NCBI GenBank assembly: GCA_019057475.1 | Contig: DXJO01000010.1 | Location: 32,001 to 96,000, forward strand | Reading direction: 5' to 3' | DNA: 64,000 bases | From: Candidatus Thorarchaeota archaeon | GTDB taxonomy: Archaea > Asgardarchaeota > Thorarchaeia > Thorarchaeales > Thorarchaeaceae | Shown here: positions 1 to 4,897 of the stretch, piece by piece | How positions within the stretch are numbered: position 1 is the first letter of the stretch | Layout: each line of letters begins with the position of its first letter | Translations under genes and position numbers: made by a program | Notes under the pieces: model-generated | What the model saw: the letters and a program-made list of their open reading frames with translations, nothing else | Told to the model about the DNA's origin: nothing | The model's database searches: none

Positions 1-2195
1 ATGATCGGTTTCCTGCTGTCTTTCAGTACAGGTTCTACCTTGGCCTTGAGTTCCTTCAGTGTGGCTCCTTCATGGAGATAGGCTCTGACCACCGAGGAAA
101 GGTCTATCATCTGCACTCTCCTCCTGTAGAATCGTTTCACTGAAGCGCTGTGTCGGGAGAGTCTAAGGCGTTGCCGCGCAAGTACAGAATCTCCATATTC
201 ACCCGTAAGGTCGAACCAGATCACGTCTCTGGCTCGGTTTCGTGCAAGGCTGTGAATGTACTGTAGTCCGTGCCACCGTGAAGCAATGACTGAGGCAGAC
301 TGGGATGGTGACCCTCTTCCGCTCACCGAGAGGTAAAGGATGAACTCCTTCTCATCGTCCACGCGATTCTTGAACGGGTCAAATTGCTCCACATAATTAA
401 TCGGCCGTACTTCAGATGCTGAGATAGTGCTAGACAGAACTTTCAGGACCATTCTCAGAGGTCGACCGCTTTCACTAGGTCGGAGAACATCTCCCATGGT
501 AAGATCATTGTTCGAAGCTCTTTGATAGGCCTCAAGAATAAGGGGCGAAATTGCCTTCCTCATTTCTCCCCAGTCCTCCTTAGAGTCTACAACAATTACA
601 GCCTTGAGAAGGTCTGTTGGTGCTAGAGTGTCCTTCCGCATTACGCTGCTATACTCAGATAGAATGGCATCACTGTAGGCTTGAAGTTGTGCCCTGTTAG
701 CCTCTGAAACAGGACTCGCAATGACTCTGTCCCAGTTGTCCTCGGTCATCCTCCTTCGCTCAAGTACGAACTCATTGACGGTGTTCTCTTCGCTCTTGGA
801 TTTGGTCTCGACACCGTAGATATCGACATCGAATGAACTCCTAGTCTTCAAATCGACGACCATGCAGGGTTCGTATACAATTACGACAGGACTATTATCA
901 GCTCGGGAGAGAAACTTTCTTCGCATCAAAACTAGGTCTGCACGTCCTCTTCCACCAGCCACGTACAATTCTGAGGTCAGCAACATACCCGATGTATCAT
1001 ATGTCATCTCATCTCCGTGATAGACCACTGCACTGAGCTTGAACGGGCTTGGGAAGTACTTGGAAATGAAACGATGAAATCTGACACCGACTCGCCTGCT
1101 CTCCTCAGTGGCCTTCCTAAGCAGCTCTCTTGCATCATCCTCCGTGAGTTTTCCATTCATTATCAGACTCTTGACCTGCTCAATGGAGTCACCCCACTCG
1201 ATGATACCCTCCTTCTTGGAGCGCGCTATCATTCGATCGAAGAGGTTCTTGAGCTGGTCTTCAGCAGCAGTTTCAGATTCATCGACTAGAGCGCTGAATG
1301 AATAATGGAGATCATCCGATGGAACCCACTCTTCCGCGGCCTCCTCAATTTCTTCAGGCTCATCGAGAGAGATCTCATTCTTCGACGTATGCTTCTCCAA
1401 GGATTCCGCAATTTCAGAAGTTATGGACTGAGGCCGACCGTTTCTCGTTCCAAACTGAGCACGTATTCGGTCCACGACCGCTCTCAGTTCTTGAATCCCA
1501 CCTCGAATGAAGTTTGAACGACCAGTGTTTCTCTCAGTGTACACGTAGTCCATGAAGGGCAACAGCCTGTCGACGAGTTCATCAACGTACTTCATGGTCT
1601 TCCTCCGCGGGACACCGTATTTCAGACACTGTCTAACTAGTTCAACGAGATGAGAGCGAATCATGTCTCCAAAGTCCAGCTCAGGCAGATGATTATGTCT
1701 CAAAGGATAGATTGGTGTCTTTGCAGAACCCGGATAGCCAACTCCAAGTTTCCCATTGCCCAGGGTAATCACCCCCGGTCTAGGGAACTCGAAGCGTTCC
1801 TTCATGACATCTCTGATTCTACTCCCCGAATAGTCCCATAACTGGTTCAGGTACTCTTGGTTCCCCTCACTGCGTTTCGTACGCTTGGTTTCCCTGTTGC
1901 CGTACTTGACTGATGTCTTCAACATGATTCGGGAGAAGCTTCTTCGTATATCCTTCTCGACCTTGAGGAGCTTCCACGCATCAGGAGCACCATTCGTCAC
2001 CGTTTCTTTATACTCTTCTTTCGCTTCTCTCCAAATCTTTGCCATGCCTTTGATGCGATTACCCTGACCATGGTACAACGGATGTGCCTCCCCAGTGGCT
2101 CTGTCTTTGGCCAAGGCAAGAGTTGCTGACATTGCCATCTGAAAGGCTGTGGTAAGGACTTTTGCAGGATTCCGTGGATATGAAGGATTGCGCAT
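1..2195 (-). CDS. Large protein (>730 aa, 3' end beyond window) with central RecB/Cas4-like PD-(D/E)XK nuclease domain and downstream HerA-like motif region
   Basis: Manual translation from ATG at 2195 (MRNPSYPRNPAKVL...) is open to base 1; it is absent from the ORF track because no stop lies in the window. Motifs GVRFH, SELYVAGGRGRADLVL, VVDLKT, QLQAY; later VIWFDLTGEY. Confidence 0.8.
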   Translation of the reverse strand, partial: MRNPSYPRNPAKVLTTAFQMAMSATLALAKDRATGEAHPLYHGQGNRIKGMAKIWREAKEEYKETVTNGAPDAWKLLKVEKDIRRSFSRIMLKTSVKYGNRETKRTKRSEGNQEYLNQLWDYSGSRIRDVMKERFEFPRPGVITLGNGKLGVGYPGSAKTPIYPLRHNHLPELDFGDMIRSHLVELVRQCLKYGVPRRKTMKYVDELVDRLLPFMDYVYTERNTGRSNFIRGGIQELRAVVDRIRAQFGTRNGRPQSITSEIAESLEKHTSKNEISLDEPEEIEEAAEEWVPSDDLHYSFSALVDESETAAEDQLKNLFDRMIARSKKEGIIEWGDSIEQVKSLIMNGKLTEDDARELLRKATEESRRVGVRFHRFISKYFPSPFKLSAVVYHGDEMTYDTSGMLLTSELYVAGGRGRADLVLMRRKFLSRADNSPVVIVYEPCMVVDLKTRSSFDVDIYGVETKSKSEENTVNEFVLERRRMTEDNWDRVIASPVSEANRAQLQAYSDAILSEYSSVMRKDTLAPTDLLKAVIVVDSKEDWGEMRKAISPLILEAYQRASNNDLTMGDVLRPSESGRPLRMVLKVLSSTISASEVRPINYVEQFDPFKNRVDDEKEFILYLSVSGRGSPSQSASVIASRWHGLQYIHSLARNRARDVIWFDLTGEYGDSVLARQRLRLSRHSASVKRFYRRRVQMIDLSSVVRAYLHEGATLKELKAKVEPVLKDSRKPI

Positions 2196-2356
2196 TGAGA
2201 TGAATCATTGTACTAAATATATAAGAATTGTTACGGCTAAAGTGACCTATGCAATACTCAATTTAACCCAAACATTCAGAGGCTAAACGCGGTTTTGTTA
2301 ATATGACGGAAAGCAGTCTTAATAACCTTATATAGGTTCATTCTGTAAAAGAATAC

Positions 2357-2418
2357 GAGTTCAAAACCCCTGTTCAATACAGGGATGGGAGTGAACTCAA
2401 CTGACCGAAACAGGTCAG
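2357..2418 (+). promoter_or_regulatory. Structured 5' leader / possible element left end upstream of tnpB
   Basis: GAGTTCA(2357-63)/TGAACTC(2392-98) encloses CCCTGT/ACAGGG, followed by hairpin CTGACC-GAAACA-GGTCAG (2401-18). TATA-like TTATATA lies about 25 nt upstream (~2328-34). Confidence 0.5.
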
Positions 2419-2446
2419 AACTTTATATAGGAGAAGACGAAAGGCG

Positions 2447-4123
2447 ATGGCTCAGTCTAAAGGTGTCACAATCTCTGTCAAGGTACCCATCAAATGGGAT
2501 GCGATGACAGAGAGAACACAACAGCGGCTCAGGCAAATTGTGGGCCGGGACACCAGAGCAGTCCGTGCTTTCCTTGGTATTATTGAACAACACGAAGACA
2601 AATTGTTGACAGGTCGTAACAATGGTAGGATACGTGATGGTGAGCTCGACAAGCTCACGATGACCGCAATCAAGGTCAAAGCAGGATTCCTTCAGAGATT
2701 GACAGTCCCGCATGACCTCAAGGCTCAGTTTTCTAGAATGTCGCAGAACGAGCTGACAGAGTGTCGGCAGACTGCAGTTGCACTCTATGAGAGCTACCTC
2801 AAACTTCGCAGGAAGAAAGGAATGAAAGCCTCCCGTCCCTGCAAGATCAACTCGACTCAGAGGATTCCTAGGTGGGTGTTCAATCAGAGGTTCAAGCTCT
2901 TTGAGAAACGCACGACTGTTGCTAGATGGTGGTTGGACTTACGTGATTCTCTTGACTCTGTGCCGGAGGGAAGGAGAGTCCACGACAGGCTCTTGATCCC
3001 CCTGAAGATGTCACCCTTTCATCTCAACCAGATTGATAGAGGGGAAGTTAAGGCACTACAGGTTCTCATTGATCGAAATGGGAAGTGGTGGGTGACCTTT
3101 GCAGTTCGAGTTGACACACCAGAGCCACCAACTGACAGTCTACCTCTGGCTGTGCTTGGAATGGACCTTGGTATCGAAAAGTCTGCATGCACGACCCTTG
3201 TCACTCCCACGAAGGTCAGGGAGACCAGATACTTCGTTCAGAGGGACAAGGTGAAGGTGATCAAGAAGTATGACAGACAGGTGGCAGACCTTCAACATGA
3301 GATGGCATCGAGAAGAAATGACGGACTGCCTTACGACAAGGTTGCAGAGAAACTCAGAAGGCTCCGAACAAAGCGAGAGAACGTTGCACGAGAGTATGAC
3401 CGCGTTCTGGTACGACAGCTTGTGGACTACATCACCGAGCTCTCTGAGAGATACACCCTGTATGTTGCCATTGGTAGACTCAAGAACATCAGGGTCACTG
3501 CACGCAGAGGTAACTTCAGGGGTCGCAGGTTCAGGGGGATGATCCATTCCTGGGCTTTTGCGAGAATCACTGACAACCTCCAGCATGCATTGGCACAGCT
3601 CGGATGGTCTGTTAGTGGAAAGGATTCTCGTTTCCGAGTAGTTCCTGAGAACTGGACCTCTATCATGTGCTGGAAGTGCGGTCGCAAGGGAAGACGCCCC
3701 AGGCAGAACTACTTTGTGTGTCCAACCTGTGGAAACAGGTGCAACGCCGACAAGAACGGAGCCATCAACATCGCCGGACGCCTCATTACGCTCACGGGAT
3801 CACTTCATTCTGTGAGAGGACTAGGCAAGTGGGCTAATGCTGTTTCACGCAGCCAACGCTCACTCCCGAAAACCCGAGGGAAGGTCTCTTCTCAAGGGAG
3901 GTCCTTACTCTCCATGAAGAGTGGTGTATCGCACTCTGGAGAGTCCGCGGCTGTTCACCATGCTCAGACGAGTCTTCTCAGTTTCAGCGATGAATCTGGG
4001 ATGGGTGATAATGACCCCGCCGTGGTAGGAACTGTGAAGACCCTCTCTGTCGCCGGGAGTGATACCCCAGCATCAAGACAGGAGAAGGAAGCCAGGTCTG
4101 TAGGAGGGATACCATCCCGATGA
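2447..4123 (+). CDS. tnpB: TnpB/Cas12f-like RNA-guided nuclease with rearranged (Fanzor-type) RuvC site
   Basis: RuvC-I LGMDLG (D240); RuvC-II position AIGRL (G343 instead of E); alternative Glu in VPENWTS (E401); Zn finger CWKC...CPTC; RuvC-III NADKNGAINI (D435). Confidence 0.85.
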   Translation: MAQSKGVTISVKVPIKWDAMTERTQQRLRQIVGRDTRAVRAFLGIIEQHEDKLLTGRNNGRIRDGELDKLTMTAIKVKAGFLQRLTVPHDLKAQFSRMSQNELTECRQTAVALYESYLKLRRKKGMKASRPCKINSTQRIPRWVFNQRFKLFEKRTTVARWWLDLRDSLDSVPEGRRVHDRLLIPLKMSPFHLNQIDRGEVKALQVLIDRNGKWWVTFAVRVDTPEPPTDSLPLAVLGMDLGIEKSACTTLVTPTKVRETRYFVQRDKVKVIKKYDRQVADLQHEMASRRNDGLPYDKVAEKLRRLRTKRENVAREYDRVLVRQLVDYITELSERYTLYVAIGRLKNIRVTARRGNFRGRRFRGMIHSWAFARITDNLQHALAQLGWSVSGKDSRFRVVPENWTSIMCWKCGRKGRRPRQNYFVCPTCGNRCNADKNGAINIAGRLITLTGSLHSVRGLGKWANAVSRSQRSLPKTRGKVSSQGRSLLSMKSGVSHSGESAAVHHAQTSLLSFSDESGMGDNDPAVVGTVKTLSVAGSDTPASRQEKEARSVGGIPSR

Positions 4124-4250
4124 TGATAGACAAAGCCCCTGCTGACTCCAGACTCCGCCGGAGTGTGGAGGATGGCGACATCTGGCAGGGGAAGGGTGGA
4201 ACACAGGAGTCTCTTACAGTTGAGTGTCACTCACATGAAATGTAAGAAAC
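4100..4250 (+). ncRNA. Putative omegaRNA (TnpB guide scaffold) 3' portion / element right end
   Basis: AAGCCCCTGC...GCAGGGGAAG stem (4136-42/4185-91) with nested hairpin 4146-4170; possible pseudoknot AGACTCC(4150-56)/GGAGTCT(4206-12); further stem TCTTACA/TGTAAGA (4212-18/4241-47). Confidence 0.55.
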
Positions 4251-4324
4251 GGGTAATAATACAATGAGTGATATAATCGTGGGTCAATCTGTTCACCGAT
4301 TTGGCCAACGCAATGGTGTAGATA

Positions 4325-4897
4325 TTGGATAATCCGCAGATACGTGCTCTTCTTGAGATTAGAAAGGACTTGGAGGACCAACTGGAAGAGTTCAGAAGAA
4401 GAGTTGGAAAGATTGAGGAGATGATTGATGAGCTCGATTCAGTCATTGGCATGGGTAGCTTCTCCTCAGCCGACGCAGTTCTTGGAGAGAAAGACACCGC
4501 GGCCAAAGACGCGACCGAGGCTGCGGCTGATGACGTGCCTGAGGAGCCAAATACAATCGTAGTGTTGAACAAAGCTCGCGATCTCGAATTGGGTACGATG
4601 GAAATCATTGGTCCAGATGTTACGATTCTTCCGGCAGAGCACGCGCTGTACGATATCAAGCGGGGCGCCTTCGCTCGATTTTTTGTTGAGCGGATTCTGG
4701 GACAGTTTCAGAGAGAAGATAGACAGAAAGTCGAGAATGGCGAGCTCGAGTGGAGCGAGACATTTGAGTTCGAAGTTCACGCTGAGGATGGCATCCTTCT
4801 TCAGCTGGTCATAAAGAACTTCGGTTCAAGCAGTAGGCTTGAGGAGATACAGCGAACTCTTCGATGGGCTCTTGAGAAAACCTATCGTGCTAGATGA
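4325..4897 (+). CDS. Hypothetical protein with N-terminal coiled coil
   Basis: 190-aa ORF, heptad-like N terminus, protein-like composition. Confidence 0.7.
   Translation: MDNPQIRALLEIRKDLEDQLEEFRRRVGKIEEMIDELDSVIGMGSFSSADAVLGEKDTAAKDATEAAADDVPEEPNTIVVLNKARDLELGTMEIIGPDVTILPAEHALYDIKRGAFARFFVERILGQFQREDRQKVENGELEWSETFEFEVHAEDGILLQLVIKNFGSSSRLEEIQRTLRWALEKTYRAR

Follow-up and report, generated by a model that had tools for sequence, protein, structure and literature searches.

A TnpB-family gene with a relocated glutamate in a Thorarchaeota mobile element

The open reading frame at positions 2447-4123 (forward strand) of the window, by which we mean the whole 64,000-nucleotide stretch of Thorarchaeota DNA analysed here, probably encodes a TnpB-family RNA-guided DNA endonuclease with a rearranged RuvC-II motif, acting as the nuclease of a Thorarchaeota aCas1-TnpB mobile element of ~7.6 kb; we assign this reading a probability of about 0.82. 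The frame, called and translated as 558 codons and referred to below as tnpB, encodes the folded enzyme in approximately residues 1-470. A first-pass annotation of this DNA had supposed a probable Asgard host, and the genome is indeed that of a Thorarchaeota archaeon.

Membership of the TnpB family, the RNA-guided nucleases of IS200/IS605 and IS607 elements, is supported by HMM searches (guided_TnpB, 3.4e-24; Cas12f1-like_TNB, PF07282, 2.6e-11), with scores of 85.9 bits for NCBIfam guided_TnpB and 27.7 bits for Pfam OrfB_IS605 that both lie under the curated cut-offs. When the PDB was searched with a profile of the tnpB family, AsCas12f was matched at 1.4e-35. The AlphaFold2 model of the product (pLDDT 81 overall, core confident) predicts the TnpB/Cas12f-like overall fold, comprising WED, REC and RuvC, and Foldseek comparison of this model retrieved AsCas12f (1.6e-16), ISFba1 TnpB (7.4e-13) and ISDra2 TnpB (5.9e-12).

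The aspartates of RuvC-I and RuvC-III, D240 in GMDLGI (3164-3166, at the end of strand 234-241) and D435 in NADKNGA, an NADxN motif (3749-3751), are invariant among 64 homologs. At the canonical RuvC-II position, which ends strand 337-344 and which HMMER aligns with the Glu in the canonical MEDL of AsCas12f, the protein has G343 within AIGRL (3473-3475), and at least 90% of the homologs have Gly there. A relocated Glu, E401 in VPENWTS (3647-3649), is likewise at least 90% conserved; it comes after strand 396-400, which has strand 337-344 as a neighbour in the sheet order of the RNase H fold. Between RuvC-II and RuvC-III lies a C4 zinc finger (C408/C411/C425/C428, 3668-3730), the region of the Cas12f1-like_TNB match; its CxxC pairs begin at 408 and 425, the first three cysteines are invariant, and the fourth, C428, is conserved in at least 90% of the homologs. 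All of these features are on the forward strand. The predicted catalytic triad is D240, E401 and D435, in which E401, at the end of the fifth RNase H-fold strand, would substitute for the usual strand-4 Glu. Consistent with this role, E401 and D435 are spaced like Glu467 and Asp501 in the solved triad of ApmFanzor2. The first-pass annotation had placed these residues in the 558-residue product and had described both the loss of the canonical Glu and the Glu before the zinc finger; the translation bears out the positions, and the homologs show that both features are conserved. Conservation of E401, set beforehand as a refuting test, was found to be that given above.

This G343/E401 arrangement is a family trait and not a chance occurrence. 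Among 56 representatives obtained by clustering at 50%, P0254 is the sole one with a Glu at the canonical site (VMENLKGI), and its 401 position (VDARYTSQ) is without a Glu. A quick tree was built from 58 members of the family; the branch leading to P0254 is very long there, and for this reason the tree gives no direction for the Glu change within this sample.

The 3' end of tnpB overlaps a predicted guide-scaffold RNA

A predicted structured omega RNA overlaps the 3' end of tnpB and reaches the right end of the element. The corresponding block (3802-4257, forward strand, 456 nt) covers codons 452-558 and then 134 nt beyond the stop codon, and is the part retained by mini-copies of the element: at least 5 solo copies of it, with 82-92% nucleotide identity, were found, several at contig ends. 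RNAalifold predicts 101 pairs, 49 of which show compensatory changes, and an Rfam scan of 2000-4800 at E<=1 gave no match. The RNA gene ends in a hairpin (4210-4249, forward strand) with a CTTACAG/TGTAAG stem, delineated from minimum free energy folds of 30 copies. Its loop and inner stem contain an invariant TCACTCA (4227-4233), which is part of GTCACTCA in the window copy and of the consensus GTTCACTCA. Downstream of tnpB, alignment A2 has an invariant T (T432), ~16 variable columns and then this TCACTCA; the variable stretch before GTTCACTCA shows covariation with the sequence that follows the motif, and folds as a hairpin. Arms from the same copy gave a duplex energy of -11.6 kcal/mol and crossed ones -8.8 kcal/mol (Mann-Whitney p 5e-6), consistent with such pairing. 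At two loci with a large canonical TnpB, GTTCACTCA was not found.

A reverse complement of the 3' segment of this RNA lies upstream of tnpB. The conserved motif GGGAGTGAACTCAACTG (2387-2403, forward strand), flanked by two small hairpins (2368-2384 and 2401-2418), precedes the ATG by 52-63 nt in most of the 34 full-length loci. The upstream motif and its 3' copy change together in loci L002/L029 and L053, and A/G and C/T variants of the upstream motif are G.U-compatible with the 3' copy. The motif falls within the divergent intergenic region (2196-2446), in which TATA-like boxes assigned by eye alone are at 2215-2225 for the opposing gene and at 2422-2429 for tnpB, and within a conserved 93-nt segment (2354-2446) whose first position is also where similarity to the paralog on contig C54 begins.

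The overlap bears on the size of the protein, which the first-pass annotation had called larger than the ~400 residues typical of TnpBs. The length is correct, but it results mostly from reading through the guide-RNA gene, and the enzyme itself is not enlarged. Codon-position entropy is 0.6/0.4/1.35 in the core and approximately equal over the three positions in the tail; protein-type codon constraint is confined to residues 1-445, and the last 107 codons, those that overlap the RNA gene, show constraint of a nucleic-acid type. Residues 476-558 have pLDDT <50 and are modelled as disordered. That the 107-residue tail is instead a functional part of the protein, such as a disordered interaction region, and the enzyme a truly enlarged TnpB of 558 residues, is unlikely in our judgement. 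The frame is open to the same TGATGA in 34/34 loci, while the other two frames have 1-6 and 5-11 stops, and random placement of the observed substitutions keeps it open in just 4-24% of trials per sequence, in a simulation that takes no account of how related the sequences are or of site-specific constraint on the RNA. Against these points stand the equal conservation of the codon positions, the disorder of the model, a covariation pattern that fits RNA, and the retention of the same DNA in mini-copies that have no gene.

Element ends, an empty site and dispersed copies

tnpB belongs to a mobile element of ~7.6 kb. Its right terminus, GGGTAAT (family consensus GGGTTAT), is at 4251-4257 (forward strand), with flanking DNA starting at ~4255-4258, and at least 8 copies end at this terminus with unrelated flanks. 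The left end is beyond the window, at ~G000:C42:28631 (L091:4631). Both ends have in common the CTTACAG/TGTAAG stem, GGAACACAG and ATGTAAGAAA, and both are kept by the mini-copies, which are scattered through the genome; as a scan with a loose left-end pattern returned mostly chance matches, copies with the full left-end sequence alone were used. An empty site was identified in two genomes of the same genus, and the comparison with one of them (G005:C238) supports the right end. The occupied site is missing 24 nt of the empty one, which points to an imprecise insertion or to a later change at the site.

A Pfam search of the 96%-complete genome gave no Y1_Tnp match, and no Y1 (HUH) or serine-recombinase TnpA lies inside the element. 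Two resolvase genes are present elsewhere in the genome, one of them beside the paralogous module on contig C53. A serine recombinase was considered as the transposase of the element and not adopted for the window copy, since three of the four other genomes with the module have none.

The partner gene encodes a predicted Cas1-like fusion protein

Divergent from tnpB on the reverse strand is the aCas1 gene, P0271, of which ORF calling and translation place the first 731 of 1806 codons at 3-2195; the gene for this 1806-residue protein extends beyond the window start to G000:C42:28778. The name aCas1 was reportedly given in Makarova et al. 2020. A gene of this type is head to head with tnpB in ~28 related loci, and the same partner type adjoins four other TnpB-family genes in the genome, two of them paralogs with 47-48% identity and two large ones with the canonical Glu.

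Structural modelling suggests that P0271 is a fusion of Cas1-like, PD-(D/E)xK and RecA-like parts. Residues 1-235 matched the Cas1 catalytic domain, best with 8flj_A (Z 13.3, rmsd 3.8, 177 aligned), followed by 4n06_B (Z 12.7), the casposase 6opm (Z 11.1) and the C-terminal domain of E. coli Cas1 (3nke, Z 9.3); ten Cas1 or casposase entries were matched at Z 9.3-13.3, values to be read in light of the fact that the match is to a predicted helical domain, for which a Z near 13 can come from a common arrangement. RecA/KaiC/RAD51 matches (Z 10-12) cover residues 613-890, and RecB-like (RecB/Cas4-type) nuclease motifs are also present. Residues E102, H167, D174, D177, D420, K450, Q503 and Y507 are invariant. 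The Cas1 match came from the wide VIA-align search alone: Foldseek on a 1200-residue model returned RecA-like matches alone, and the ESM Atlas gave weak AAA_24/PDDEXK_1 leads alone (0.77). Pfam, PADLOC and PDB sequence searches with the protein were without a significant match, and Pfam Cas_Cas1 had no match across the whole genome.

Activity and alternative explanations

In the inferred mechanism, the TnpB would bind the omega RNA and cut guide-matched DNA beside a short motif; the left flank usually reads ...GAG. Such guided cutting may favour retention or spread of the element, for which the Cas1-like partner is a candidate integrase. As the first-pass annotation had proposed, the product looks active rather than TldR-like, because conservation extends to all three acidic residues and to the zinc finger, and because the core, evolving as a protein, is under purifying selection.

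It is very improbable that the protein is instead a nuclease-dead, domesticated TnpB, that is, a TldR-like RNA-guided regulator for which the lost canonical Glu would be a sign of inactivation and the binding target would be the motif that precedes its own promoter. Such a regulator would fit the missing Glu, the age of the within-genome paralogs (68%, 48% and 47% identity) and the position of the conserved complement of the RNA 3' end ~30 nt upstream of the TATA-like box. However, TldR-type proteins are recognised by catalytic acids lost without replacement, and here all three are conserved, with an anticorrelation between E401 and the canonical Glu. TvTnpB and ApmFanzor have this arrangement and are catalytically active, and the element is mobile, as seen from the similarity of its mini-copies and from the empty site within the genus.

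The first-pass annotation had also taken relocation of the Glu as a mark of Fanzors and their closest prokaryotic relatives, and had drawn from the Asgard host a bearing on Fanzor origins. The first of these statements is too narrow, given that the relocation has been published in several TnpB clades (RIIr, TnpB2 and the active TvTnpB). For the second we find no evidence: the family profile matched no Fanzor at E<=1 in the PDB, where Cas12f and TnpB structures scored 1e-35 to 1e-9, and Foldseek ranked ApmFanzor2 24th, after Cas12f and TnpB. A close prokaryotic relative of Fanzors, whose presence in Asgard archaea would bear on the origin of the eukaryotic proteins, would account for the relocated Glu, for the host and for the 34-residue spacing from E401 to D435, which equals that from Glu467 to Asp501 in ApmFanzor2; a HMMER alignment with that protein ends at 442 to 508, an offset of 66, as for Glu467/Asp501. 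Yet the single-sequence match to ApmFanzor2 reaches just E 0.3-0.6, and PMC10691335, in its available text, counts two major clades and eight large branches with the RuvC-II rearrangement, of which several are archaeal. According to its title and abstract, PMC10711439 traces Fanzors to one unique clade of enzymes from bacteria, and its available part does not mention TnpB and Asgard together. The family is, moreover, almost confined to Thorarchaeota: the named homologs are nearly all from Thorarchaeota metagenome-assembled genomes, and the protein itself is not encoded in a eukaryote or eukaryotic virus. We therefore give this idea very little weight.

Distinctly unlikely, if less so, is a two-protein RNA-guided transposon with a new mechanism, in which a TnpB-omega RNA complex is completed by pairing of GTTCACTCA and the Cas1-like giant performs integration. 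Here a conserved and complementary sequence encoded 52-63 nt upstream of tnpB, either a leader or a small RNA, would pair with the GTTCACTCA segment at the 3' end of the RNA, tracr-like or as a panhandle. The complex would make its cuts at the element ends or the empty site, or next to these, and integration of the DNA would fall to the giant, which has RecB-type nuclease and RecA-like domains. If true, a Cas1 integrase would here be acting together with a Cas12 ancestor where no CRISPR array is involved, and the element would hence be a living model for the union of effector and adaptation modules in type V systems.

As for the preferred reading, that of an active, RuvC-II-rearranged TnpB within an aCas1-TnpB element, it contributes a further archaeal family but not a new principle, since the relocated-Glu site is documented, and active, in relatives. 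Its value lies in a well-delimited example of an aCas1-TnpB element, with two defined ends, an empty site and gene-less mini-copies consisting of the ends and the RNA alone, and in a guide-scaffold RNA of ~450 nt with rich covariation. New here are the exact element ends, the empty site, the mini-copies, the covariation of the omega RNA and the 5' motif complementary to its 3' end. In the same genome, paralogous modules pair a Cas1-like partner of the same kind with canonical-Glu TnpB, so that, together with the well-delimited element, they offer a practical start for probing the role of a Cas1 homolog beside a Cas12 ancestor, and two active-site layouts can be compared in one genetic background.

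Comparison with known systems

The closest solved relatives by profile and fold are Cas12f (AsCas12f 8J12/8J3R, OsCas12f 9NZQ) and the ISDra2 and ISFba1 TnpBs, which resemble the window protein in size, in domain order and in the zinc finger between RuvC-II and RuvC-III. They differ in keeping the canonical RuvC-II Glu, and in their partners, as Cas12f operates with a CRISPR array and tracrRNA, and ISDra2 TnpB with a Y1 TnpA. ApmFanzor2 of Acanthamoeba polyphaga mimivirus (PDB 9B0L), whose solved triad is Asp324/Glu467/Asp501 and in which E467A abolishes cleavage, has the relocated Glu at the same distance from the RuvC-III Asp and matches the fold (Foldseek 2.4e-10, TM about 0.5). Its sequence similarity is marginal, however, the host of the window protein is neither a eukaryote nor a virus, and the partner gene and element type are different.

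With regard to the active site, the protein falls, judged by its residues, under the definition of RIIr/TnpB2, that is, an inert residue (Gly or Pro) at the canonical site and a conserved downstream Glu. In the available text of PMC10691335, Altae-Tran et al. 2023 describe Glu relocation in two major clades and eight large TnpB/Cas12 branches, some nearly archaea-only, and give NADXN as the mark of a "derived" TnpB clade; Jiang et al. 2023 (PMC10530073) found the archaeal TvTnpB of Thermoplasma volcanium ("TnpB2", alternative Glu E323) to be active. The window protein is like these in having Gly at the canonical site, a conserved alternative Glu that lies on strand 5 or after it, just ahead of the zinc finger, and an archaeal host. 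In contrast, the Glu is shifted by 58 residues here versus ~45-50 in the accessible portions of PMC10691335 and PMC10530073, and no Y1 transposase is associated.

The element as a whole is of the published aCas1-TnpB type (Altae-Tran et al. 2023, PMC10691335), as far as it is described in the available text, where section 9 catalogues the aCas1-TnpB loci of Asgard archaea as Cas1H-Asgard-1 and -2. The same text reports that tnpB genes linked to aCas1 in Asgard archaea are followed by an invariant T, a variable stretch and GTTCACTCA, and raises the possibility of a spacer-like guide in this variable stretch; the available text does not state a relocated Glu for those TnpBs. The likeness to the Cas1H-Asgard loci as described there extends to the Thorarchaeota host, a tnpB adjoining a Cas1 homolog in a repeat-flanked locus, the order of invariant T, variable stretch and GTTCACTCA after tnpB, and two distinct TnpB lineages with the same partner type, both of which are found in this genome. 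What sets the present element apart from that description is the variable stretch, which here covaries, forms a hairpin and has an inverted counterpart upstream of tnpB.

The tnpB product carries a relocated RuvC-II glutamate

The tnpB gene is a single long open reading frame of 558 codons on the forward strand (window 2447-4123). Its translation confirms the relocated-Glu TnpB reported in the first-pass annotation and bears out every residue position given there: the RuvC-I Asp D240 (in GMDLGI), G343 (in AIGRL) at the canonical RuvC-II Glu position, the relocated Glu E401 (in VPENWTS), and the RuvC-III Asp D435 (in NADKNGA). The zinc finger consists of two CxxC pairs (residues 408-411 and 425-428). 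In HMMER alignments, the Glu of the AsCas12f MEDL motif aligns with G343, and E401 occupies the position of the Pro in the canonical "DPxxTSQ". The product matches the Cas12f1-like TNB domain in Pfam (2.6e-11), with OrfB_IS605 slightly under the Pfam cut-off and guided_TnpB (NCBIfam) reaching 85.9 bits where the cut-off is 100.

A word-indexed homolog search returned 552 proteins; the best 120 of these are almost all 542-598 aa long and ~70% identical over their full length, and almost every named member among them comes from Thorarchaeota. Scanning all 1.8 billion cluster representatives yielded 902 matches, of which 63 scored below 1e-30. D240, D435 and three zinc-finger Cys do not vary across 64 aligned members, and conservation of G343, E401 and C428 is at least 90%. 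Only one of 56 representatives, P0254, has the canonical Glu (VMENLKGI), and it is without the downstream Glu, the reciprocal pattern that would be expected. Codon-position entropies over residues 1-445 (~0.6, 0.4 and 1.35 in 34 full-length loci) indicate ordinary purifying selection on the protein.

An AlphaFold2 model built from 64 sequences (pLDDT 81, pTM 0.74) has high confidence over residues 4-470. In this model G343 sits at the end of strand 337-344, and strand 396-400 is followed directly by E401. D435 follows E401 by 34 residues, just as Asp501 follows Glu467 in the catalytic triad of the solved ApmFanzor2 structure; the HMMER alignment to the ApmFanzor2 chain ends at 442/508, and with this offset of 66, residue 401 corresponds to 467 and residue 435 to 501. 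The spacing match lends indirect support to E401 as the putative catalytic-triad Glu.

The rearrangement is of a known type and does not point to Fanzors

According to Altae-Tran et al. (2023, PMC10691335), two major clades and eight large branches of TnpB/Cas12 have altered RuvC-II motifs. In the largest altered set Glu is replaced by Gly and compensated by a strand-5 Glu as in RuvX, and several altered branches are nearly confined to archaea (PMC10691335). The rearrangement in the tnpB product is of this known type, and its NADxN RuvC-III motif assigns it to the TnpBs classified there as "derived". Jiang et al. (2023, PMC10530073), who use "TnpB2" for a monophyletic set, reported that ApmFanzor no longer cleaves with the E467A substitution and that TvTnpB, an archaeal enzyme with the alternative Glu E323, cleaves DNA at the TAM NTGAC without collateral activity. 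These two studies mean that the rearrangement has already been published and that relatives carrying it are active; the enzyme encoded here is very probably active as well.

The relocation had been taken to characterise Fanzors and their closest relatives, a premise that mirrors one published view, in which only Fanzor and pro-Fanzor TnpB2 have the rearrangement (PMC11832414). The broader census contradicts this uniqueness (PMC10691335). When the family profile was compared with all PDB sequences, AsCas12f was matched at 1.4e-35, further Cas12f and TnpB chains gave E-values as weak as 1e-9, and no Fanzor chain appeared at E<=1. Foldseek with the model ranked Cas12f and TnpB at the top (1.6e-16 to 6e-12) and ApmFanzor2 24th. 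Neither search reveals a special relationship, and the proposed bearing on Fanzor origins is not supported.

The C-terminal tail overlaps a structured omega RNA

BLASTN of window 2000-4700 against the genome identified window 3802-4257, the last 107 codons of tnpB and 134 nt past the stop, as a repeat with at least five further copies (82-92% identity, several at contig ends). Codon positions are near-equally conserved over residues 452-558 (0.5-0.9, 34 loci), RNAalifold predicts 101 pairs from 32 copies, 49 of them with compensatory changes, and residues 476-558 are disordered in the model. Rfam gave no match for the region. Together, the equal codon constraint, covariation, disorder and repeat copies indicate that 3802-4257 encodes a large structured omega RNA. 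The folded enzyme comprises ~470 residues; the long reading frame stands, but the suggestion of an enlarged TnpB is not supported.

The tnpB frame is open through the RNA gene (window 3800-4123) in 34/34 loci, with 1-6 and 5-11 stops in the other frames. Random placement of the observed substitutions, which ignores RNA site constraints and relatedness, leaves it open 4-24% of the time per sequence, and by this test the tail is probably translated, with stops selected against. The same interval has an open frame but an amino-acid sequence without codon-type constraint, and looks dual-use.

Conserved GGGAGTGAACTC(A/G)ACTG (window 2387-2403), flanked by small hairpins (2368-2384 and 2401-2418), sits ~58 nt ahead of the tnpB start in the window and 52-63 nt ahead of it in most of the 34 loci. 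Its sequence is reverse-complementary to the omega RNA 3' segment, CAGTTGAG(G)TTCACTC (window 4217-4233), GTTCACTC included. The two copies vary together in L002/L029 and L053, and where the upstream copy has its frequent A/G and C/T variants, G.U pairing with the 3' copy is still possible. This co-variation and compatibility would favour a leader or small RNA pairing with the omega RNA 3' end, rather than an inverted repeat acting purely as DNA; the motif pair suggests RNA pairing of a tracr-like or panhandle kind, or that the promoter holds a self-target.

Ends of the element and its empty site

Gene-less solo copies elsewhere in the genome have a common 5' part of 110-200 nt, which is also present at C42:28625-28733 on the contig holding the window, directly past the 3' end of the gene for the 1806-aa partner protein. 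Copy C21a retains the left end, along with the final ~40 codons from this giant gene and the tnpB tail; this make-up and the shared 5' part identify the solo copies as internal-deletion derivatives of one element. The element spans ~7.62 kb, from ~C42:28631 to window 4254-4257. Its left end starts CGAYGGAATTCTTACAG, preceded by ...GAG in 5/6 independent insertions, and its right end finishes AAGAAAYGGGTTAT in at least 8 copies with unrelated flanks. A hairpin stands at each end, with the outer stem CTTACAG/TGTAAG common to both and an invariant TCACTCA within the right one; in this right-end hairpin, the two arms from a single copy pair better (-11.6 kcal/mol) than arms crossed between copies (-8.8 kcal/mol; p 5e-6).

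In two same-genus genomes, G005 and G007, the site is empty, with left and right flanks only ~37-47 nt apart, and in the other genomes compared the flank runs on into the element. At the empty site L117:1158-1196 (G005:C238), ~24 nt (GTAGTCTTCGATTTGTTGGTCTTG) are unaligned and have no counterpart in the occupied site, owing either to loss of target DNA on insertion or to a later change at the empty site.

At L035, L069, L052 (3' of tnpB) and G000:C21:106153-106250, a tRNA gene on the opposite strand has its 3' end 20-45 nt away from the right end; L035 and L069 are without the usual terminal hairpin. An orthologous locus in another Thorarchaeota genome (L086:1061-1130, compared with window 4251-4290) shares this right end and its flank, except for the 12 nt (AATACAATGAGT) immediately past the terminus, which it lacks. 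A separate ~155-nt repeat has at least 30 copies (90-98% identity, many at contig ends), at G000:C34:69145-69299, C42:210385-210540, C42:180193-180350, C19, C46, C54 and others; adjoining one mini-copy is its sole link to the element.

A giant, probably Cas1-like partner

Full-length homologs of the 1806-aa protein number 37, none with a Pfam domain; those named are Thorarchaeota hypothetical proteins. The gene for this protein is head to head with tnpB in ~28 of the related loci having enough flank. A model of residues 1-1200 (pLDDT 82, pTM 0.81) was compared against 48,161 PDB representatives: residues 1-235 match ten Cas1 catalytic-domain/casposase entries at Z 9.3-13.3 (best 8flj_A, rmsd 3.8 over 177 residues), and residues 613-890 match RecA/KaiC/RAD51. 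E102, H167, D174 and D177 are invariant, in a Glu-His-Asp order and spacing that would correspond to those of Cas1 active sites. Since helical domains can reach such Z by chance, the model makes a Cas1-like fold for residues 1-235 probable only. The also invariant E409, D420, K450, Q503 and Y507 form a RecB/Cas4-type PD-(D/E)xK signature.

The source genome holds five giant-gene modules. Three carry this TnpB family (100%, 48% and 47% identity), and two, L101:6995-9286 (G000:C53) and L102:7721-9868 (G000:C54:171720-173867), carry a 715-763-aa TnpB-like protein with the canonical Glu (YFEDL / FENL) and NPAWTSQ; GTTCACTCA was not found in these two loci. No Y1 transposase was found in the genome. 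An IS607-type serine recombinase (177 aa, MerR-like HTH and resolvase domain; L101:742-1275) abuts the 3' end of the C53 giant gene and is absent from 3/4 other genomes holding the module. The C53 module is possibly an autonomous form of the element.

Comparison with aCas1-associated tnpB loci

Asgard tnpB loci linked to aCas1 have a conserved T, a hypervariable stretch and then GTTCACTCA (PMC10691335), and the 3' region of this element matches that layout. The locus is a clean member of the catalogued aCas1-TnpB element family. The hypervariable stretch was suggested to be a possible spacer-like guide (PMC10691335); in this element it varies in the manner of a stem arm, covarying with the opposite arm.
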